The notes: a model not told the origin generated them from the letters alone. A stretch of DNA of 64,000 nucleotides from a phage (PZ445488.1), one strand, 5' to 3'; counted from the stretch's first letter, positions 28,127 through 40,871 are shown. Made by a program: numbers and translations.

Positions 28127-28456
28127 TTATACTCTAGGCTTTTGAGCTTGTTTGGTATTGGATTCCCATGCGGCTTTGGTAATTTTGTTAGCGGCATAGC
28201 CAAAGGCATTAGATAGAACACCTTTAGAGTTGAATACATCCAATCCAATAAGTACACCTGCTGTGTTAAATTTAGGAGCAAAGTATGCATTAGTTTTAGA
28301 AAGAGCTTTTTTCAATTCAGGGTCTTGAACCAAGCCATCAAAAACGCCTTTACTATTTACTTTATATGTTACTTTGGGATTTTTACCTTCTTCGATAGCA
28401 GCTTTCTGTTCAGCAGATAATGTAACTTCAGTGATAAATTCTTGATACATTTTCAT
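28127..28456 (-). CDS. internal-protein-like protein with capsid-targeting N-terminus
   Basis: 109 aa; N-terminus MKMYQEFITEV resembles T4 internal protein CTS MKTYQEFIAE. Confidence 0.55.
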   Translation of the reverse strand: MKMYQEFITEVTLSAEQKAAIEEGKNPKVTYKVNSKGVFDGLVQDPELKKALSKTNAYFAPKFNTAGVLIGLDVFNSKGVLSNAFGYAANKITKAAWESNTKQAQKPRV

Positions 28457-28462
28457 TTTTCC

Positions 28463-28876
28463 TTAGTAAATTGATTTACCATAGTATTTGTACCAAGTCA
28501 GTCGTTGAGCAATTTTTTCATCTAAGCGTGCTTGACTTATCGCAATGGACGCTTCGGAAGGGACATAATTATTACGAAATTCGGCAGGGATGTCGGAAAT
28601 ATCCTGGACTGTCGTGTCCTTGATTTTGAAACCACGTTTCAAGCATTCAGCGATTAGCTCGATTTGTCGTAAACGTAAAAATTCAAGTTTGTCGTAAAAG
28701 AATGTTACGTGACCTGTGCCTAAGATAAATGTTGGAGAGATTTTAAAATCCTTTACACGTTTACCGTTTTGAACATGTTTACGGACTGCACCAAATACGC
28801 GTGGTAATTCACGATACTCAGCCATAAGATGTTGGTCGGTCAGTTCAGAAACAAGTGTTAAATTGATACGGGTCAT
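28463..28876 (-). CDS. denV: endonuclease V (pyrimidine dimer DNA glycosylase) DenV
   Basis: 137 aa from ATG 28876: [35 protein letters not shown]...; near-identical to recalled T4 endonuclease V. Confidence 0.92.
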
Positions 28877-28894
28877 AATTTCCTCCAAGTAGTT

Positions 28895-28934: not shown

Positions 28935-29216
28935 CTATTTTTCTGAAGCGCCTGAAATATATTTTTCAAGACGTTGTTTCATTAACGAGCCGTTCTTAGC
29001 GATTTCTTCCGGTTTATCGCACATACGCAACAGTGCTTCAAGCTTAGCGATATCGCTGGTACGTTCAAATTTGCGAGTATCTATCTTACTGGCAAGTTCA
29101 GAAATACGTGCTAATAGACTTTCGGCTTCAACCAAAGCTGCACCTAGCTTAGTTGCAAATGTGTCAGTAGCTTCGTTAAGAATAGATTCTGATAAAAATT
29201 CACTATATGTTTTCAT
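28935..29216 (-). CDS. internal-protein-like protein with capsid-targeting N-terminus
   Basis: Start at ATG 29216 ([16 protein letters not shown]...), ATGA overlap with lysozyme stop. Confidence 0.5.
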
Positions 29217-29701
29217 ATATACGCTTTCCAAGTTCCTGTTTTAAATGTTGAGATTACGCGTTTCGCGCGATTAGGTGTCTGACGATACCATTTAGATTGG
29301 GCTAGATTTACTGCCGCTTCATCCCAACGTTTCTGTTGAAGCATACGAAGAGAATTAGTAAAACCAGCAACGCCTGCTACACCCATTTGGAAGACCATAT
29401 TGACCAATGCACATCGACGAACTGCATCTAAAGAATCATATACCGGTTTAAGTTTAGCATTACCCAAGATTCCGCGAACGGCTTTATCGACGTCTTCATT
29501 AAATAGCTTTTCAGCCTCATCAAGGGTAATTGTACCGTTGCATTTACGACCGATCATTCTGTCAAGTTCAGCTTTAGCTACGGCTAAAGACGGGTTCTTT
29601 GTTACTAAATGGCCTATGCCAATCGTCCAAAAGCCTTCAGTGTCTTTGTATAAAGTCAGTCTAAGACCTTCGTCATTACGAAGCATTTCAAATATATTCA
29701 T
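29213..29701 (-). CDS. e: endolysin (T4 lysozyme, gene e)
   Basis: 162 aa; [32 protein letters not shown]...; near-identical to T4 lysozyme including catalytic E11/D20/T26 context. Confidence 0.95.
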
Positions 29702-29735: not shown

Positions 29736-30194
29736 TTATAGGAGGGTAGTGAGCACCTTATATAATGATTTGCCCATCACATATTCCCATTGAGAAGGTT
29801 TAATTAAAGCGAATGCATCAAATTCAGGAATCTGTCGTCCGTCTGGGAATGTATGATAGGAATTACAAACACTGTTTCTGAATTGCTCGTGCTCTACAGG
29901 GATGGTATATAGGAACAGATGAATATTCTTATTGTCTGAGTAATGATGTTCACCTAGGTCTTTCAGGAAGGCAGGGTCATATTGTGTAAACCCAGTTTCT
30001 TCTTCGCATTCACGAATAGCGGCTTCAATAGGAGATTCGCCAGGTTCGACACGGCCTTTAGGAATATCCCAGCGATGAGCTAATGCACCTTTAGGACGAG
30101 AACCAGTTACACGCCCCATGAATAATTCTTTATCTTCGGTAAGGAAAATAATACCGGCTGATAGCTCTTTCACTTTATTTTTCTTACTCATCAT
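29736..30194 (-). CDS. nudE: Nudix hydrolase NudE
   Basis: 152 aa; Nudix box GRVEPGESPIEAAIRECEEETG; position downstream of e as in T4. Confidence 0.85.
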   Translation of the reverse strand: MMSKKNKVKELSAGIIFLTEDKELFMGRVTGSRPKGALAHRWDIPKGRVEPGESPIEAAIRECEEETGFTQYDPAFLKDLGEHHYSDNKNIHLFLYTIPVEHEQFRNSVCNSYHTFPDGRQIPEFDAFALIKPSQWEYVMGKSLYKVLTTLL

Positions 30195-30435
30195 CTCGGT
30201 CCCATGATTTGGCCATTAATTCGGACATAAATTCTTCAATGCGCGTTTCTTTAGATGGACTTTCACTATTAGAGACCACAAGTTTGTAATCTGCAATAGG
30301 ACAGAACATATCAAGGTCCGTATTAAGGTCGTCTTTGATTTTTTCTTCTGACACATCTTTATCGTATGTGTACAGATAACTATCACATGATTCTGATTTA
30401 ATGTAAATTGCTATACTCATCTCAAATTCCTGCAT
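30184..30435 (-). CDS. hypothetical acidic protein
   Basis: 83 aa ORF, ATG start. Confidence 0.45.
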   Translation of the reverse strand: MQEFEMSIAIYIKSESCDSYLYTYDKDVSEEKIKDDLNTDLDMFCPIADYKLVVSNSESPSKETRIEEFMSELMAKSWDRDDE

Positions 30436-30908
30436 TCGGTAATAAAACGTTCAACTTCATTATTCTTGGCTTTTATCTTGTCTTTATGTTCTTGTAAACC
30501 ACTTTTAATAAGATTAATAATGATGGCGGCGGTACCGCCGCCAATGATGCCACCAACAACACTTACGATACTAGATGCTAATAAGATAGCAATAATATCA
30601 ACAAAACCGAAAGAACTCACCTTAGTACTGAAAAACCATACCGACGGTACAAATATAATCCATCCTGTTATCCATTGGCACTTATTGAAAAACTTTTCAA
30701 GCTCAGCTTGAGTTGTTCGTATTACTTCATCGATAGGTTGATATCCATTAATGTATCTGTTCACGATAATACCTGCTGGCTGGTCGATTTTAAATTCTTG
30801 GCAAATACGTTTCACTAAGTAGGATGGACATCCTGTCCAATCCACTGAATAGTACGAAATACCTTCGTTGCCATCGTCTATATTAGACCAATATGTTTTG
30901 TTAATCAT
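30417..30908 (-). CDS. hypothetical membrane protein, C-terminal E-x-F-I-x-E-C-R motif family
   Basis: 163 aa; hydrophobic core; ends ...VERFITECRNLR. Confidence 0.5.
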   Translation of the reverse strand: MINKTYWSNIDDGNEGISYYSVDWTGCPSYLVKRICQEFKIDQPAGIIVNRYINGYQPIDEVIRTTQAELEKFFNKCQWITGWIIFVPSVWFFSTKVSSFGFVDIIAILLASSIVSVVGGIIGGGTAAIIINLIKSGLQEHKDKIKAKNNEVERFITECRNLR

Positions 30909-31594
30909 TACCAGCCTTCCATAGGGAATTCCAGATAAACTTGAGCATTGACACGAATTTCATTGGTAATCTTTTTAACTCGGTCTGTATTACGAGATAC
31001 ACGTCCGAACCAACGCCATCCGTTACTAGTTGCACGAGAACCAGTGTGCCATGTTTGCCAATCAAACTGAAGAAGAGTACGATCTGGAGCTTCCCATTTC
31101 TCTAGTTCGCCTTTTTCGATTTTTTCGAGGACTTCTTTGTGCCACTGGCGATAGATAAGTTCGCCATCAGGAATCTGACTGAACTCTGCAGTTCCTGTTG
31201 CAAAATGAGTAGGACACACATCAGCGTTAACAAGACCAAGAATATGTTCAGACAAATAGCGAGGATTGTCATAGTCAGGTTGTCCTGCAGTAATAAAATG
31301 TTGACCAACCGGAATATCCGGGCGTGGTACGTCATCATGGTGATAACCAGGAATAGCAGGATACCAACCAGGCATCAGCATATGGACTCGTGAATCAAAT
31401 ACTACATCTGAGTCTTTCCAATCGTCAGGGAGATTTTGGATAAAGCTACGAGTAATTGGACCGCCGTTATCAAAAGCAAAATTCAAATCGCAATTAAAGA
31501 ACATAGGCTCGTTTTTAATCTGGTCATTTTTAATCGCATGAGCAAAACCACCTACTGCACGAGCTTGACTATTAAACACTTTAGAACTATTCAT
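30908..31594 (-). CDS. hypothetical protein
   Basis: 228 aa; Trp/His-rich; no confident domain assignment. Confidence 0.5.
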   Translation of the reverse strand: MNSSKVFNSQARAVGGFAHAIKNDQIKNEPMFFNCDLNFAFDNGGPITRSFIQNLPDDWKDSDVVFDSRVHMLMPGWYPAIPGYHHDDVPRPDIPVGQHFITAGQPDYDNPRYLSEHILGLVNADVCPTHFATGTAEFSQIPDGELIYRQWHKEVLEKIEKGELEKWEAPDRTLLQFDWQTWHTGSRATSNGWRWFGRVSRNTDRVKKITNEIRVNAQVYLEFPMEGW

Positions 31595-31595
31595 A

Positions 31596-31901
31596 TTATT
31601 TTCCTCGACATTCTTTAATGAAATTTTCTAGATTGGTAGATTCAATAGCTTTTTTACGAGCTTCTGCGTGTTCTTCTTCAGACAATTTACATTTATAATT
31701 GACCCAGACGTTATGGTCGAAACTAGTCGTGGCATATAATAACAATGCTCCAACGAATAGCAAAAACGGCGATAAGAATACAAAACCAGGAACACCATCC
31801 ATACTGTAAGCCTTTTGTAATACTGCAACAGAAAGAGCTGCGTAAAAAAGTGATACAAATATTGTTAAAAGACCAATTCGGTTGGTTTCGCCTAATTTCA
31901 T
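31596..31901 (-). CDS. hypothetical membrane protein, C-terminal E-x-F-I-x-E-C-R motif family
   Basis: 101 aa; two hydrophobic helices; ends ...LENFIKECRGK. Confidence 0.5.
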   Translation of the reverse strand: MKLGETNRIGLLTIFVSLFYAALSVAVLQKAYSMDGVPGFVFLSPFLLFVGALLLYATTSFDHNVWVNYKCKLSEEEHAEARKKAIESTNLENFIKECRGK

Positions 31902-31922
31902 AATATTCTCCTCATGTTTTAA

Positions 31923-31958
31923 TAGGACTACTATAACATAGTCCTATCAGTTTGTACA
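31923..31958 (-). promoter_or_regulatory. PeSL-like early promoter with stem-loop
   Basis: TAGGACTACTATAACATAGTCCTA inverted repeat around -10-like element. Confidence 0.45.
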
Positions 31959-31959
31959 C

Positions 31960-32160
31960 TTATTTTGACATTTCTTCGATGTCACGACGATACCCATCAC
32001 GAACTTCACGAAGAGCTTCAAGGCCACACATAGGCTCGATACCAGTAATGTGAACTTGATTAATCTGATACTCTACATCTTCTAACTGAGCGAAAACATA
32101 ACGACGTTCTGCTGCACAACCAGGTTTAGCTTTACCGAAACGTTTATTCAAAGTAGTCAT
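31960..32160 (-). CDS. hypothetical protein
   Basis: Track start is GTG; in-frame ATG at 32160 with GGAG SD. Confidence 0.4.
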   Translation of the reverse strand: MTTLNKRFGKAKPGCAAERRYVFAQLEDVEYQINQVHITGIEPMCGLEALREVRDGYRRDIEEMSK

Positions 32161-32189
32161 TTTTATATCTCCATTCACTCATTTGTTTT

Positions 32190-32228
32190 GATAGGTCTAT
32201 AGTATCAACAACTACAGACCTTGTAAAC
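32190..32228 (-). promoter_or_regulatory. PeSL-like early promoter with stem-loop
   Basis: GATAGGTCTATAGTATCAACAACTACAGACCTTGTAAAC on plus. Confidence 0.5.
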
Positions 32229-32240
32229 TGTTTTGTGAAA

Positions 32241-33197
32241 TTATTTGAAAGGTTTTACCATATGAAAGTTTTGTTTGAAACGCTTGACGTAATCGTCGTG
32301 TCCTAAGCTTTGGTACATACTTACTACTTTGCTATAATTTTCCCAAGCGAACTCACGGAACCATCCTGATGTGATTGATGTACAGACCTTTTCAAGGGCC
32401 ATCATAAAACTATCACGTGGATGGATTTCAAAGTTATTAGGAATCTGAGAACGTTCTAACGCTAGTACACATGATTCTTCGTATACGCCGGCCAATTTGA
32501 CCATTTCTGGTAATGATTCGAACTTCTCGCGTGAGGTCATGACTTCAGAACCATCTTTCATATAAAATGTATACGCTGGACGGTCTGTTAGTGCAATGGC
32601 TTCATGAATAGTATCATGGTCATATGTATAGATGTCATCTTTAAAGAACGCACTTTTAGAAGTGTCAAGAACTGGGTGAGCATAATTCAAGGTTTCTTTC
32701 TGGCGTTTCAGCATAATTTCAGTAAGTTCATCGTTCAGTGTAACACCTTTACCACGAAGATACTGAATATGGTTCATAGTCTTTAAAAAGAATGGATTAT
32801 TTTTCTTGAAACGATGAGACATCTTAATTGCAAGACATATCTCAGGAGTTGCCCAGTAAAACCCGTTCAAACGGTCTTTAGTCAAATTTTTCTTGGCGTA
32901 TTTTAAAAGGTCATAAGAAGACGTGAAATCTTCAGGAGTGAGTTCACCGACTAGTTCGCGAACGTTAGTGATAGCCGGAACGATGTATGCTTCAAAATGA
33001 GTTTCGCGTCCATTATGGAAGCATTTGAAAACTTGGACATCAGGGTTATCTTGGTGAACATATACACCCATCATTTGATTTTTGAATGCATTCCAAGAAC
33101 CTTGGTCCGCAATAAAGTCCCAATCACTATTTTTAATAGCGCTAGAATCAATAAGACCGTGATAGTGAAGTGCACGAGAACCAATAACTAACATCAT
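32241..33197 (-). CDS. hypothetical protein with weak nucleotidyltransferase-like N-terminal motif
   Basis: 318 aa; IGSRALHYHG...SDWDF loosely fits GS...DxD pattern; low confidence in the domain. Confidence 0.5.
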   Translation of the reverse strand: MMLVIGSRALHYHGLIDSSAIKNSDWDFIADQGSWNAFKNQMMGVYVHQDNPDVQVFKCFHNGRETHFEAYIVPAITNVRELVGELTPEDFTSSYDLLKYAKKNLTKDRLNGFYWATPEICLAIKMSHRFKKNNPFFLKTMNHIQYLRGKGVTLNDELTEIMLKRQKETLNYAHPVLDTSKSAFFKDDIYTYDHDTIHEAIALTDRPAYTFYMKDGSEVMTSREKFESLPEMVKLAGVYEESCVLALERSQIPNNFEIHPRDSFMMALEKVCTSITSGWFREFAWENYSKVVSMYQSLGHDDYVKRFKQNFHMVKPFK

Positions 33198-33225
33198 AAT
33201 ATTTTCCTCGGATTAATTCATTAAC

Positions 33226-33477
33226 TTAAATTTCGCGACATGCGATATTATATTCATCCCAGAGGTCGTCATGTGAAGCCTCTACCAATGGAACGATTGT
33301 GCCGTTTATGTCTTCATTATAAGGGCAAATTGTACAGTGCGCATCTTCGAATCGGATGTCTTTGTGTTCAGATTTTTTATAACGCATATCGAATATCTTT
33401 GCAAACTTTTCACGAGTAATAGTTTTAGCAACTACTTCGGTTCCGATACTTTCGTAATAAATCATTGTGGACTCCAT
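33226..33477 (-). CDS. hypothetical protein
   Basis: 83 aa ORF, ATG start. Confidence 0.45.
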   Translation of the reverse strand: MESTMIYYESIGTEVVAKTITREKFAKIFDMRYKKSEHKDIRFEDAHCTICPYNEDINGTIVPLVEASHDDLWDEYNIACREI

Positions 33478-33484
33478 TTGTTTT

Positions 33485-33523
33485 GATAGGACTACTATAA
33501 CATAGCCCTATCTTGTTGTAAAC
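33485..33523 (-). promoter_or_regulatory. PeSL-like early promoter with stem-loop
   Basis: GATAGGACTACTATAACATAGCCCTATC...GTAAAC on plus. Confidence 0.5.
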
Positions 33524-33527
33524 TGTT

Positions 33528-33725
33528 TTAGCAAGAATAACTAGATGATACCCAGCCTTGAACAGTGATACTATTGTGGGATAATGAGATCGCGTCCTGG
33601 AGATTCAGACCTGCGTTATCTTCAATCCACAATGTAACTTCTTCACGCTCTTCGGTTGCAATCTGGAACAGGTTTTCCAGGGCAGCTACTGCCGTACGTA
33701 CAGCACAATCTAATTCACGAGACAT
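33528..33725 (-). CDS. small protein, C-terminal GWVSSSxxC family, paralog 1
   Basis: 65 aa ending ...VQGWVSSSYSC. Confidence 0.5.
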   Translation of the reverse strand: MSRELDCAVRTAVAALENLFQIATEEREEVTLWIEDNAGLNLQDAISLSHNSITVQGWVSSSYSC

Positions 33726-33734
33726 ATGATTTCC

Positions 33735-34007
33735 TTAACAAGTGTGAGAAGATGCAACCCAACCACCATCTTCAAGGCTCAGGTTGTAGTCGTATTGGTA
33801 AACGTCAGCCCATTCAGCCTGGCCGTTTTTTGTACAACGTTCAAGATCGGCTTTAAGATGTCCGGGTGAATGATAGGTTCCACCCATGCCATAAGCTGGA
33901 TACAAGTTGAATGTTGTGTTTTGTTTATCAGCAATTTCTTTGGCAGCCTCAATAGCTGCATAGATTTTTGCTACAGCTTCAGCCAGTTCGGTTTGTTCTT
34001 TAGACAT
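33735..34007 (-). CDS. small protein, C-terminal GWVSSSxxC family, paralog 2
   Basis: 90 aa ending ...DGGWVASSHTC; shares YxxGxGxTY motif with paralog 3. Confidence 0.5.
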   Translation of the reverse strand: MSKEQTELAEAVAKIYAAIEAAKEIADKQNTTFNLYPAYGMGGTYHSPGHLKADLERCTKNGQAEWADVYQYDYNLSLEDGGWVASSHTC

Positions 34008-34016
34008 AATGATTCC

Positions 34017-34322
34017 TTAGCACAACGCAGAAGACGAAACCCAAGCACCTTCAGTAATAACGTATCCATTACCTTCACGCTTAACATCGCCGCCATTATT
34101 TTCAATTTCATCTTTCATCCACTGGGATACGATTTCACCCTTAGGATAATAAGTACGACCGCTACCATAATCACCTACAGAAAATGATACGGCATATTGG
34201 TCTGCGATCTTTGTTGCTTCTTCTTCGATACGTTCAGCTTGATTCAGAAGTTTATAAATTGCATCTGAAGCGGATTTGGCATCATTAAACTCTGGTACTT
34301 TAATTTCAATAATCTTACTCAT
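34017..34322 (-). CDS. small protein, C-terminal GWVSSSxxC family, paralog 3
   Basis: 101 aa ending ...EGAWVSSSALC. Confidence 0.5.
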   Translation of the reverse strand: MSKIIEIKVPEFNDAKSASDAIYKLLNQAERIEEEATKIADQYAVSFSVGDYGSGRTYYPKGEIVSQWMKDEIENNGGDVKREGNGYVITEGAWVSSSALC

Positions 34323-34678
34323 TTTCTACATTCCTTAATAAAGTTTTCGATTGTTTCATTTTCACGTCTAGCTAGGAGTTCATTATAACTAATCATTTGA
34401 GAAGCGTAAACCTTTTTATTTTTCTTGTTGTGGTTTATAAAATCGTAGTAAAAATAGACTACAGTAAAAAATGATGCGATGGATGCAAAGGCTTGGGTAT
34501 ACCGTAAGTCCTGCCATTGGTCTGTGAATCCACCAGTGTTCCCTATAAATCCTAACACAACGCCGTCAATAAGAAATCCAACTAATCCAAAGGCAAATCC
34601 CATGCCAATACTCATAATAAAAATTAGAATGTTCTCACCAAGAGAAGGCCATACGGTTAAGAGTTGAGGCTTTTGCAT
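34319..34678 (-). CDS. hypothetical membrane protein, C-terminal E-x-F-I-x-E-C-R motif family
   Basis: 119 aa; hydrophobic; ends ...IENFIKECRK. Confidence 0.5.
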   Translation of the reverse strand: MQKPQLLTVWPSLGENILIFIMSIGMGFAFGLVGFLIDGVVLGFIGNTGGFTDQWQDLRYTQAFASIASFFTVVYFYYDFINHNKKNKKVYASQMISYNELLARRENETIENFIKECRK

Positions 34679-35052
34679 CTTATTTCCTTAACGAATTCCA
34701 TAGCTTCTTCATATTCATACTTTTTAACAGCTTCATCATACTGAGCTTGGGCTTTTGCGCACTGAACTTTCCATTCTCTTAATCGGGCTCTGTGATGACG
34801 TCCTTGGTACCAATATCCCATCCAGTTAATAGGCATTAATAAAAACGGTACAATAAGTGGTGCGACGAACATTAATGAAAATGCTGCATCGGACGATATA
34901 ACTTCACTAGAATCTAAAACGGCTCCTATAATCATAAAGATTAAAAATGCTAAAGCTAAAATAGGGCCAAATAGTACTTCATTTGGGATTAATTTACGCT
35001 TGTATTCATACGCCCAGGGCTTACTTGGCATGTACAGGGTTGGCTTTGACAT
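34657..35052 (-). CDS. hypothetical membrane protein (start uncertain)
   Basis: Start placed at ATG 35052 inside the C-terminal codons of the upstream gene; ends ...EFVKEIRCKSLNS. Confidence 0.4.
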   Translation of the reverse strand: MSKPTLYMPSKPWAYEYKRKLIPNEVLFGPILALAFLIFMIIGAVLDSSEVISSDAAFSLMFVAPLIVPFLLMPINWMGYWYQGRHHRARLREWKVQCAKAQAQYDEAVKKYEYEEAMEFVKEIRCKSLNS

Positions 35053-35617
35053 ATTCTCTACATTCCATAATAAATTGCTCAAGGATTAAATTGTTAGTGA
35101 AATTAGGACTAACAACCATAGTTTCATAAAGCGCATCAATAGAACTTAAAGCATCAACTCTTTTAAGCAAAGGCTTGCCTTCATACATAGTTTCAGAATC
35201 GACGATTAACGTAAAGTAGTATTTTTTATTATCGACTAGAACTTCTGTATCGATATAAAACATATTAGACCTCAGAAGCTTATCTCTAAAACCATAATAA
35301 TCTTCAGAGCGTTCGCTGATATATTCCCATTCAGTGTTTAAACAACAAACAGACCACGTAGGAGCAACGAAATCAGTGAATCTAATATCATGGTCTGCAA
35401 CTAGTTTAGCAATAGCTCCGATATCATTAATCATGATACCTGGGGCTAATAAAGATTTTCGGTTATTTGCATATTCAGTTGTCTCATAAGAAGACGACCA
35501 GTACCATTTACGTCCAGTTGCAACATATCGTAATGAATCAACTAAAGACGTAGGTGGATTTACCTTATTTCGGAACTCTTCGAACATTGAGTCAATATCA
35601 TTATTTTGGTTTCGCAT
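35021..35617 (-). CDS. hypothetical protein, C-terminal E-x-F-I-x-E-C-R motif
   Basis: Start at ATG 35617 with AAGGAG SD; ends ...LEQFIMECREYVKANPVHAK. Confidence 0.5.
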   Translation of the reverse strand: MRNQNNDIDSMFEEFRNKVNPPTSLVDSLRYVATGRKWYWSSSYETTEYANNRKSLLAPGIMINDIGAIAKLVADHDIRFTDFVAPTWSVCCLNTEWEYISERSEDYYGFRDKLLRSNMFYIDTEVLVDNKKYYFTLIVDSETMYEGKPLLKRVDALSSIDALYETMVVSPNFTNNLILEQFIMECREYVKANPVHAK

Positions 35618-35640
35618 GTTAACTCCTTTATTATCCAAAA

Positions 35641-35658
35641 GGAGGACCGGAGTCCTCC
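35641..35658 (-). terminator. GGAGGAC-UCCG-GUCCUCC hairpin followed by U-rich tract (minus sense)
   Basis: Perfect 7 bp stem between genes 35667..36260 and 35021..35617, followed by UUUUGG. Confidence 0.45.
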
Positions 35659-35666
35659 GTATTATT

Positions 35667-36260
35667 TTATTTCAAAGAGTTAATATATTCTTGTACATCA
35701 GCAGAAGTGGTTTCGACACCGGTTGGAGTGCCATTGAACGTTTCAACACGAGTCAGAGTGTCTTCGATATCAACCTTGGTCAGTGCAGCGATTTCAATTA
35801 CATCATCAGCCGTAGAGATACCAAGGGCATTAGCTGCTCGAGTTTCACGAATGTATTCGAGTTTGATTGCCAGGTTCTGACGAGCATCGTCAAGTTCAAC
35901 CACCTTACGAGCAATTTCAATTCGCATAGCGGCATACCCGTCAGCTTTTGTATTAAGTTGTTCGGCAGTTCGACGATACAGAAGACCAAGCTTAGCATGC
36001 ATAGTAACATCTTGTCCTTCAGCCAGGAGCTTACGAATTTCACGTTCCTTAGAAGCGGCTTGCTTGTTCTTTTCATTAACAAGTTCGCGAATACGTTTTT
36101 CTTCGTTAATAGATTTAACAGAAGCCGTTTTTAGTTCTTTGATTTGGGTAATCAACTTATCTGCAGCTGCGTTATACTGTTCTTCGACAGTCAGATTTTT
36201 AGCCATAACAGTACCCAGTTTAGTGCGGATGAATTCAACAAGTTTCTTCAGTGTGTTCAT
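35667..36260 (-). CDS. hypothetical coiled-coil protein
   Basis: Start at ATG 36260 ([10 protein letters not shown]...); track start is TTG. Confidence 0.5.
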
Positions 36261-36282
36261 ATTATTACCTTTCAATTGGTGG

Positions 36283-36327
36283 TTTATTATCCAACGAGAG
36301 CATTATACTCTGCTCTCAAGAGTTTGT
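36283..36327 (-). repeat. 45-nt intergenic cassette, copy B (identical to 6872..6916)
   Basis: Exact 45-nt identity with copy A, same position relative to downstream start codon. Confidence 0.7.
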
Positions 36328-37229: not shown

Positions 37230-37856
37230 TTACTTACGAGTTTTTGCATACTGAGCAGCGTCAGCAGCCAAACGACCTGCTTGTCGAAGTTTTTCTTTAA
37301 TCTCATCATGAAGTGGTTGAGTATACTTCAAACCTTCGATAGTCAAATAAAGACGATAAAGGTCTGGGGTATCAAGGTTGTTGATATGTTGGCCATTACG
37401 AAGACTATTGAATTCACGAACGAGTGAAGATGTATCAGATTCAATATCACGAACAAGCGAAGATAGTTGTTTATATTTTTTTTCCAGGCTAGAAGTATCA
37501 AACTTAAGAGCAGGAGCTTTAGGAGTTGCTTTTACTTCCGGCTTAGGCTCAGGTTTTGCTACTGCTTTAGGGGTCGCAGGTTTAGGAGTGGTAGGAGCAG
37601 GTTTTACTTTAGGCGAACCAGATTTAGCAGAAACACCACCACTAACAATATCTTTGAATGCTTTAGAAGCTCTGTAATATTCTTTTTGGCTGGAAGTGTC
37701 GATACCGTACATGGCTTGAACGTTTTTGAAAAACTCTGTACTAGTTTTTGTACCAGAAATAGCATCGTAAGCAGCTTGCCATTTCTCTTTTGTCATACGT
37801 ACACCGGCTTCGGTGATTACTTCCGTTTCGGCTAAAAATTCATTAAAAGTATACAT
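37230..37856 (-). CDS. internal-protein-like protein (CTS-like N-terminus, Pro/Lys-rich linker), late-promoter driven
   Basis: 208 aa; N-terminus MYTFNEFLAETEVITEAG; PKPATPKAVAKPEPKPEVKATPKAP low-complexity linker; TATAAATA upstream. Confidence 0.55.
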   Translation of the reverse strand: MYTFNEFLAETEVITEAGVRMTKEKWQAAYDAISGTKTSTEFFKNVQAMYGIDTSSQKEYYRASKAFKDIVSGGVSAKSGSPKVKPAPTTPKPATPKAVAKPEPKPEVKATPKAPALKFDTSSLEKKYKQLSSLVRDIESDTSSLVREFNSLRNGQHINNLDTPDLYRLYLTIEGLKYTQPLHDEIKEKLRQAGRLAADAAQYAKTRK

Positions 37857-40251: not shown

Positions 40252-40515
40252 TTAAATACCAGCTTCGCGTTTAACATAATCGACGTAAGCTTGGATAGCT
40301 TTCTTGCTGGTAATTTTTACCTGGCCTCGTCCGTTGCCTTCTTTAGAGTTTTTCTTAACAACTACATTACCATCTTTAACACCCCATACATGGACATAAG
40401 TACCGATGTTTCGGTCGTAGAACATTGCATGGTCGTTGTTGTAAGAGAATGATTCGTAGTTCTCTGACAGAGTAGAAGATTGAGATTCAGCGATAAATTC
40501 TTTATAGGTTTTCAT
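40252..40515 (-). CDS. internal-protein-like protein with capsid-targeting N-terminus (ipI position)
   Basis: 87 aa; N-terminus MKTYKEFIAES matches T4 IP CTS. Confidence 0.6.
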   Translation of the reverse strand: MKTYKEFIAESQSSTLSENYESFSYNNDHAMFYDRNIGTYVHVWGVKDGNVVVKKNSKEGNGRGQVKITSKKAIQAYVDYVKREAGI

Positions 40516-40583: not shown

Positions 40584-40871
40584 TTACAGAAGAGTTTTTG
40601 CAATAATTTTAAGCTGAGCTACAGAAATATGCTTAGCTTTAAACAGTGCGGTCTCTTCGGCCGGAGAGATAACAACAGTAGCGCCATCTTTCTTAGCAGA
40701 CCATCCGTCCCCTAAGTAAACAGTACCTTTTACTTCTTCACCATCAACCAGACTAATCATCGGTTTACCCTCACGTCCTTTATTTGCTTTAATAACTTCG
40801 GAAGTAAGGGTTGCTTCGGTCAGAGTAGAAACGTTAGCAACAGGTGATATAAATTCTTTATAGGTTTTCAT
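40584..40871 (-). CDS. internal-protein-like protein with capsid-targeting N-terminus
   Basis: 95 aa; N-terminus MKTYKEFISPV. Confidence 0.55.
   Translation of the reverse strand: MKTYKEFISPVANVSTLTEATLTSEVIKANKGREGKPMISLVDGEEVKGTVYLGDGWSAKKDGATVVISPAEETALFKAKHISVAQLKIIAKTLL

Follow-up and report, generated by a model that had tools for sequence, protein, structure and literature searches.

Background

Gene junctions in phage T4 are compact, with stop and start codons that overlap as ATGA, Shine-Dalgarno (SD) sequences placed inside the upstream coding sequence and translational coupling of neighbouring genes. The internal proteins of the same phage group carry leaders that act as capsid-targeting sequences, for which the gp21 cleavage rule is [LI]-x-E. 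A third known system concerns the hyperplastic regions of T4-type genomes, which, according to PMC2839356, shuffle at short repeated cassettes; these include the PeSLs (also cited to PMC4122927), small regulatory cassettes with a strong sigma-70-like promoter and a stem-loop terminator. Here we compare with these systems a stretch of 64,000 nucleotides of phage DNA (PZ445488.1, hereafter the window), in which the orthologues of T4 e.2, e.3, e.4 and e.5 and a homologue of RB69ORF133c, five adjacent early genes on the minus strand, encode the peptide F-I-x-E-C-R or a variant of it at or near their C-termini, close to the start codon of the following gene.

An earlier, sequence-only reading of the window had proposed that this motif could be a protein-level signature of a paralogous family, a nucleotide-level cassette for translational coupling or recombination, or both. 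The explanation that we favour, with a probability of about 0.55, is that the motif is a protein-level C-terminal module on adjacent T-even accessory proteins encoded in one compact same-strand gene block, that it serves as a cytoplasmic helical docking element, and that the SD of the downstream gene is dual-coded within it.

Conservation of the C-terminal peptide

All five open reading frames (ORFs) singled out by the sequence-only reading are present on the minus strand (Table 1). Four of them had been described as ending in F-I-x-E-C-R, and four exact copies do lie near C-termini, with the correction that e.5 runs 11 codons further (...FIMECREYVKANPVHAK, that is EYVKANPVHAK before the stop), an extension also found in T4 e.5. 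The variant EFVKEIRC was located in e.4, as described. The exact motif occurs four times in a six-frame translation of the 64 kb, each time in an ORF of this cluster and 1-11 codons before a stop, whereas 200 first-order Markov simulations averaged 0.035 occurrences and never gave more than 1; the corresponding DNA-level pattern, allowing <=2 mismatches, has 4 matches vs. 0.63 expected. When the complete T4T genome (169 kb) was scanned in six frames for F[IV]x[ED]CR, only e.2b, e.3 and e.5, plus the e.4 variant, were returned, and the motif is confined to this gene cluster both in the T4T genome and in the window.

A search of 1.84 billion representative proteins with a hidden Markov model (HMM) of the tail, at E <= 1e-3, recovered only these T-even families and two low-complexity or repeat-protein artefacts, that is, no new carrier family at this threshold; since about nine residues are too few for a significant match on their own, the tail HMM may overlook distant carriers. 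A 43-aa tail profile matched only short fragments of the same families, and a locus search with e.5 found 6 IMG/VR loci only.

Twenty instances of the motif were compared from five genera: Mosigvirus (the window), Tequatrovirus (T4T and IMG/VR relatives), Dhakavirus IME08, Gaprivervirus VR26 and Kanagawavirus CIP9. The T4 tails read NNFITECRKLK (e.2b), KEFVIDCRKIK (e.3), MKFVKESRCKSQS (e.4) and EKFVKECREYVKAITIPSK (e.5), each up to the stop codon, and the tail is likewise kept in IME08, VR26, CIP9 and a metagenomic relative. Phe is found in 20/20 instances (TTT in 17, TTC in 3) and position 2 is Ile or Val, written with five codons; Cys is encoded by TGT in 8 and TGC in 8, and Arg by AGA in 6, CGT in 5, AGG in 3, CGA in 3 and CGC in 1, with Lys twice at this position. 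Third-position entropy peaks at the Cys and Arg codons. Since both families of Arg codons are used while the amino acid is kept, nucleotide conservation cannot be the source of the motif. By this pattern, purifying selection preserves the residues F, I/V, E, C and R rather than the nucleotide sequence, and the proposal of a protein-level signature is borne out by this synonymous variation together with retention of the motif in orthologues of 28-55% identity across the five genera.

The consensus can be given as hydrophobic-x-x-F-[IV]-x-[E]-[C/V/I/L]-[R]. The fifth motif position, occupied by C, V, I, L or S, behaves as a small hydrophobic residue. For the e.2 family, all 50/50 cluster representatives from a collection of 5.8 billion proteins finish with F-[IV]-x-[EG]-C-R plus 1-4 further residues, and F155, C159 and R160 are the sole invariant residues of the alignment outside the N-terminal domain; the N-terminal Cys27 is conserved as well. 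In the MAFFT alignment most tails also have an aromatic residue in register, 13-16 positions before the Phe, which may point to a homologous module about 25 residues long.

The core F-[IL]-x-E is common to these tails and to the leaders MKTY-x-EF[IL]xE of the flanking ipII-/ipIII-type genes, and F-I-x-E/C-R might accordingly be a recognition element for the prohead protease gp21 or for the prohead core (cf. MKTYQEFIAE/A). However, a position-specific scoring matrix built from 15 leaders scored the tails at background, the best of them at rank 21 with 1.8 bits compared to 20-29 for true leaders, and the C-terminal position of the motif, mostly on membrane proteins, makes packaging implausible. 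Among the explanations considered here, a relation to capsid targeting is the least probable.

Ribosome-binding sites within the motif

The sequence-only reading placed the motif 5-15 nt upstream of the next start codon, which roughly matches our measurements: the next ATG follows the last base of the Arg codon at -1 to 10 nt at all five window junctions. Over the 20 instances the distance is -1 to 10 nt in 17 and 22-28 nt in three, measured with corrected starts downstream of e.2 (conserved MSIAIY and MKTLSAG). The motif adjoins the next start because the genes are packed with overlapping stops and starts. The junctions combine stop/start overlap or close apposition with an SD inside the upstream ORF, as would be expected of translationally coupled gene pairs.

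The individual junctions differ in how the SD is accommodated. For the gene after e.2, the SD AGGAA (30431-30427) is drawn from the Arg and Asn codons and the ATG at 30420 overlaps the e.2 stop as ATGA; the MSIAIY start of this gene is conserved in IME08 and VR26. The SD of the gene after ORF133c, GAGGA (31606-31602), lies within the Arg and Gly codons, with the ATG at 31594. After e.3 the Lys and Glu codons themselves form the SD (AAGGAA, 34336-34331), and the ATG at 34322 again overlaps the stop (ATGA). The SD of e.3 is the AAGGAA (34689-34684) of the e.4 motif, and the e.3 ATG (34678-34676) spans the Arg codon and the next Cys codon. The ATG of e.4 (35052) begins 4 nt past the Arg codon of the e.5 motif, within a 32-nt overlap of e.5 and e.4 (35021-35052) that has the same form in T4 (ECREYVKA... 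against MSKP...).

Two details of these junctions bear on annotation. The e.4 N-terminus MSKP[TS]LY[ML]PSKP is conserved in T4, which supports the start at 35052 and not that at 35031 annotated in several GenBank relatives. The displaced Cys of the e.4 variant (EIR-C) takes its TG from the start codon of e.3 (AG-ATG-C); most probably it merely reflects this overlap, and no residue of the motif has shifted. The ATG contained in GAA-TGY was also considered as an alternative start and rejected: TAG follows at once in e.3 and e.5, and this ATG is absent in T4 e.3.

Across the 20 instances the codons for x and E contain GGA in 11/12 cases when the next ATG is <=5 nt away vs. 0/8 when it is farther (Fisher p = 7e-5); with orthologous groups collapsed the counts are 5/6 vs. 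0/6 (p = 0.015). The GGA-bearing forms are AAGGAA, GAGGAA, AAGGAG, AAAGGA and ATGGAA, and at wider spacing the SD sits in or past the Arg codon. Orthologues follow the same pattern, e.2 having ACC/ACT-GAA at 8 nt in Mosigvirus and T4, GAG-GAA at 2 nt in IME08 and VR26 and AAA-GGA at 1 nt in CIP9, and e.3 having AAG-GAA at 2 nt, compared to ATT-GAT at 8 nt in T4. When the spacing fits, the SD of the next gene thus makes use of the unconstrained residue x and of wobble bases in a selected peptide, a case of dual coding. The embedded SD is not why the motif exists. Of the suggestion that the motif works at both levels, what stands is that the SD uses the free x and the wobble bases at fitting spacing; the peptide comes first, however, and the nucleotides are secondary. 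The sequence-only reading had also considered that the motif might be missing from orthologues in relatives and be explained by SD requirements alone, and neither was found.

The opposite causal order would make the motif a nucleotide element, either a conserved cassette serving initiation or coupling at the next gene or a brief homology for modular recombination, with the peptide incidental. It would explain why the motif always lies <=28 nt (usually <=10) before the next ATG, even in e.5 with its stop 11 codons on, and why AAGGAA within the motif makes a good SD in several copies. Three copies moreover form a 22-nt direct-repeat family (D2), and shuffling of T4-type hyperplastic regions at short repeats is known (PMC2839356). 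Codon usage nevertheless largely refutes it, as five Arg codons, both Cys codons and the I/V alternation occur with the amino acids preserved. SD nucleotides are found in the motif only at fitting spacing and otherwise downstream, the ATG spacing varies from -1 to 28 nt, and nucleotide similarity among the five window copies is confined to about 22-24 nt; the D1 repeat, by contrast, extends over 89 nt at 71% identity and is mostly intergenic. Windows of 91 nt at the junctions fold no better than shuffles (z -0.85 to +1.89), so that no stable RNA structure is present there. No promoter-like site overlaps the e.3, e.4 and e.5 copies of the motif, and the two weak 9/12 promoter matches near the e.2 copy (minus strand, 30407-30379, just downstream) and the ORF133c copy (plus strand, 31605-31634, opposite strand) stay within the shuffle expectation of about 25 per region. 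A junction-swap signature was not found in relatives, where the rearrangements in phiC120 and OLB35 are internal to e.3, away from the motif. A coupling or recombination cassette as the cause of the motif is very unlikely on these grounds.

The two rearranged phages were themselves candidates for modular swaps, matching only the last 30 residues of e.3; this was rejected, as they carry internal deletions or duplications within e.3/e.4.

It has also to be considered that the tail acts while still in the ribosome, as a regulatory nascent peptide that slows or stalls the ribosome from within the exit tunnel and so modulates termination-reinitiation on the overlapping start. Peptide-level conservation just before a downstream start, in a block of overlapping genes, is what such a peptide would show. 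Against it, the distances vary widely (1-15 codons before the stop, -1 to 28 nt before the next ATG), a ribosome stalled at the start would block it instead of exposing it, and there is no sequestering RNA structure that would need unwinding. To our knowledge the motif resembles no ribosome arrest peptide. We consider a regulatory nascent peptide scarcely credible.

Relationships among the proteins carrying the motif

The sequence-only reading spoke of a paralogous family. This applies to e.3 and e.4, which are homologous over about 93 columns (hhalign probability 91%). When e.2 or e.5 is compared with the other members by profile-profile alignment and BLAST, only the 9-15-residue tail aligns; thus, only 15 tail columns align between e.2 and e.3 (E = 1.6e-5), and matches of e.2 to e.3 and ORF133c are restricted to 13-15 tail columns. 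The exception is a weak match of ORF133c to the e.2 family phrog_2203 over transmembrane (TM) segments plus tail (E = 1.2e-4).

Further carriers are encoded in this region in Dhakavirus, Gaprivervirus and Kanagawavirus. A soluble protein of 180-184 aa at the e.5 position of IME08 and VR26 has the tail (...LNRFIAECREYAKE...), as does a soluble 99-aa protein of CIP9 (...LDKFIKQCRRNQNVS, up to the stop), and additional small membrane proteins possess it too. For the tail-bearers noted in IME08, VR26 and CIP9, BLAST similarity to the window genes is limited to the tail. Taken together, the motif carriers, e.3/e.4 excepted, share little or nothing outside the tail.

The main rival to a docking module is that the tail is the last recognizable trace of tandem duplication and rapid divergence, kept for the sake of each protein's own structure, for example as a membrane-proximal helix or for helix capping. 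The homology of e.3 and e.4 over TM segments plus tail and the match of ORF133c to the e.2 family HMM both favour such a relic, as do the upstream aromatic residue, which suggests a homologous module of the length given above, the individual loss of members in some phages, and a second tandem family nearby (WVSSSxxC), which shows that duplication is common in the region. Against it, the tail is also present on the soluble and otherwise dissimilar e.5, IME08 orf125 and CIP9 gp242; in e.2 invariance beyond the N-terminal domain is reduced to three tail residues; and retention of the tail at 28% overall identity across five genera suggests a stronger constraint than on the rest of each protein. 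On balance a relic of this kind seems rather unlikely.

Predicted topology and possible function

The proteins had been regarded as membrane proteins, and e.2, ORF133c, e.3 and e.4 do have one or two TM-like segments each; e.5 has no hydrophobic segment and is therefore not a membrane protein. The segment after the last TM contains 7-11 Lys and Arg residues, and by the positive-inside rule these K/R-rich segments would place the tails in the cytoplasm. AlphaFold2 (AF2) models show a tail helix (177-192) after a loop in e.5 and a long helix (102-161) running from the last TM into the tail in e.2. The conserved positions (hydrophobic at -3, F, I/V, and C/V/I/L at +4) fit the i, i+3, i+4, i+7 spacing. 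Amphipathic helices that target proteins to membranes, as in MinD and FtsA, have a high helical hydrophobic moment and usually a net positive charge; here the moment clearly exceeds that of shuffles in 1 of 16 tails, and the tails are charge-balanced.

The tail is most likely a cytoplasmic helical docking element. It would form a short helix on the cytoplasmic side, following the K/R-rich segments after the last TM, in which a hydrophobic stripe (-3, 0, +1, +4) flanked by E and R could provide a common docking surface. The docking target may be one shared partner of host or phage origin, or other members of the cluster, and docking among the members would tether the soluble e.5 to the membrane proteins. 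The module could have spread by tandem duplication, as for e.3/e.4, and probably also by retention on, or fusion to, other domains.

More specifically, the tail might act as a common address tag, directing the soluble e.5-type proteins and the membrane proteins e.2, e.3, e.4 and ORF133c to one target on the cytoplasmic side of the inner membrane, so that subunits could be swapped in the hypervariable region as long as the tag is kept. The target would be a host protein or other cluster members, the latter forming a modular, phage-encoded membrane complex. This extension of the docking proposal is tentative, and we would expect it to be wrong more often than right.

Several observations weigh against the docking module. 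The Cys is not universal, e.4-type tails having I, S, V or L in its place, nor is the Glu, which is Q, N or G in Kanagawavirus tails. Both AF2 models are of low confidence, with a predicted local distance difference test score (pLDDT) of 62 for e.5 and 63 for e.2 and a predicted template modelling score (pTM) of 0.63 and 0.36, respectively. The hydrophobic moment is not consistently above that of shuffles (1/16 tails below 0.01). Weak collinear similarity connects e.5, IME08 orf125 and CIP9 gp248; these may be very diverged orthologues, which would leave fewer truly unrelated carriers. Finally, some phages do without individual members or carry them in a decaying state, which speaks against an obligatory multi-subunit complex: phiC120 (L004, 5900-6120) has an internal deletion in e.3, OLB35 (L020, 2850-3300) has the duplicated order e.4 tail, e.3 remnant, e.4 tail, e.3 tail, the e.2 gene of T4T (L003, 5360-5847) is broken into e.2a and e.2b, and in a T4-like contig (L015, 6986-8743) e.2 is absent and e.5 frameshifted.

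Co-variation of the tails with a common partner in each lineage was also considered, given that all four CIP9 tails are without Glu. It was rejected, as two of the matching tails in L021, a related contig, do have the Glu.

The gene block and its surroundings

The source phage is a Mosigvirus, an RB69-like member of the T4-type Tevenvirinae; over bases 30100-36300 the identity is 100% to Escherichia phage CEV1 and 96-99% to many Mosigvirus genomes. Gene names were taken from annotated relatives and T4T (e.2 is named in OL960577). The annotated relatives and T4T share the gene order e.6-e.5-e.4-e.3-(inserts)-e.2-nudE-e, which is conserved between nudE/e and e.6. Against T4 the window proteins gave E = 1e-11 for e.2, 3e-57 for e.4 and 9e-67 for e.5, with 28-55% overall identity.

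Table 1. Coordinates of the genes and motif copies in the e region of the window
Feature	Position	Strand	Description
denV	28463-28888	-	
e lysozyme	29213-29701	-	
nudE	29736-30194	-	
78-aa ORF	30184-30420	-	
e.2	30417-30908	-	163 aa; conserved N-terminal domain, two TM-like segments (92-135), K/R-rich tail ...NNEVERFITECRNLR, stop; phrog_2203
e.2 motif	30429-30446	-	F-I-T-E-C-R (TTT ATT ACC GAA TGC AGG)
228-aa ORF	30908-31594	-	
RB69ORF133c homologue	31596-31901	-	101 aa; two TM-like segments, tail ...STNLENFIKECRGK, stop; phrog_9798
ORF133c motif	31605-31622	-	F-I-K-E-C-R (TTC ATT AAA GAA TGT CGA)
e.3	34319-34678	-	119 aa; membrane protein, tail ...NETIENFIKECRK, stop; 35% identity to T4 e.3
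e.3 motif	34325-34342	-	F-I-K-E-C-R (TTT ATT AAG GAA TGT AGA)
e.4	34657-35052	-	131 aa; ATG at 35052, two TM-like segments, tail ...EEAMEFVKEIRCKSLNS, stop
e.4 variant motif	34678-34695	-	F-V-K-E-I-R (TTC GTT AAG GAA ATA AGA)
e.5	35021-35617	-	198 aa; soluble, no TM-like segment; 47% identity to T4 e.5
e.5 motif	35057-35074	-	F-I-M-E-C-R (TTT ATT ATG GAA TGT AGA)
e.6	35667-36275	-	

Database homologues at E = 1e-119 to 1e-31 carry PF26896 (Phage_T4_Y06M; e.2), PF26873 (Phage_T4_Y06O; e.4) and PF26876 (Phage_T4_Y06P; e.5), these names being the precomputed annotation of the homologues and not direct model hits on the window proteins. Matches to e.2, e.3 or e.5 number roughly 650-700 records in the phage collection. 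Functional annotation for the cluster proteins is absent from Pfam, NCBIfam and PHROGs, and literature searches on e.2-e.5 returned nothing relevant, within their incomplete coverage. A tail common to several families has no record in Pfam, NCBIfam, PHROG or the literature searched, a coverage that is incomplete and does not amount to proof of novelty.

Within e.2, a perfect GC-rich palindrome at 30524-30543 (TGGCGGCGGTACCGCCGCCA, with 8-bp arms and a central GGTACC) was flagged by the terminator scan; it encodes part of the glycine-rich TM segment GGIIGGGTAA.

The inserts between ORF133c and e.3 contain a second family of tandem paralogues on the minus strand (33528-34322), with ORFs at 34017-34322, 33735-34007 and 33528-33725 whose C-terminal signatures end on the last residue (...GAWVSSSALC, ...GGWVASSHTC and ...QGWVSSSYSC). 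This WVSSS family, represented by phrog_899 and phrog_4882, is missing from the e region of T4 and occurs in 4-6 consecutive copies in IME08, VR26, CIP9 and L021 (WVSSSxxC, WFSSSMSC, IWYPSSC, WQSSSYxC). Between it and ORF133c lies a 318-aa protein (32241-33197, minus strand) with the Pfam domains DUF7277 and DUF7275 (E = 1e-28 and 3e-79), likewise not present in the T4 e region.

PeSL-like intergenic repeats occur in the same interval, at 31877-31965 and 33441-33529 (the D1 pair) and also at 32180-32227, with a repeat of 32180-32199 at 33475-33494. Each has, on the minus strand, a promoter-like TTTACA/TGTACA-17-TATAGT beside a hairpin (TAGGACTA...TAGTCCTA). These repeats are candidate nucleotide-level shuffling cassettes of the region, distinct from the peptide motif.

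Leaders of the capsid-targeting type begin the ORFs at 28127-28456, 28935-29216, 40252-40515, 40584-40871 and 37230-37856 (minus strand), which points to polymorphic internal-protein-like genes flanking the e.2-e.5 cluster on both sides.

Comparison with known systems

The window genes are orthologues of T4 e.2-e.5 and RB69ORF133c, already catalogued as proteins of unknown function. The databases keep e.2, e.4 and e.5 as separate families, and the tail links them, thereby connecting Pfam families now treated apart. Five neighbouring products with one peptide, retained in at least five genera although the rest diverges to about 30% identity, offer a handle on the function-unknown genes of the e-to-tRNA hyperplastic region. 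The tail predicts a common interactor and provides a short bait peptide for it. The region may also serve as a clean natural example of dual coding, in which a spacing-dependent ribosome-binding site is fitted into a selected peptide, and the pattern is useful for annotation, as it helps to fix the starts of e.4 and of the gene downstream of e.2, which are inconsistently annotated in relatives.

The tails resemble the T4 capsid-targeting sequence (MKTYQEFIAE) in being a short peptide with the core F-I-x-E on unrelated hypervariable proteins of the same region. In contrast to the tails, which are C-terminal, the capsid-targeting sequence is N-terminal and cleaved off. With PeSLs the motif has in common that it is a short repeated sequence at gene boundaries in a hypervariable region. 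Unlike them it is coding, lacks a stem-loop and a promoter, and is conserved as amino acids. Like the compact junctions of T4, all five window junctions are close or overlapping, with the SD in the upstream ORF and two ATGA overlaps. They differ from ordinary T4 junctions in that the SD lies inside a peptide motif that is itself under selection, and in that x and the wobble bases co-vary with the spacing.

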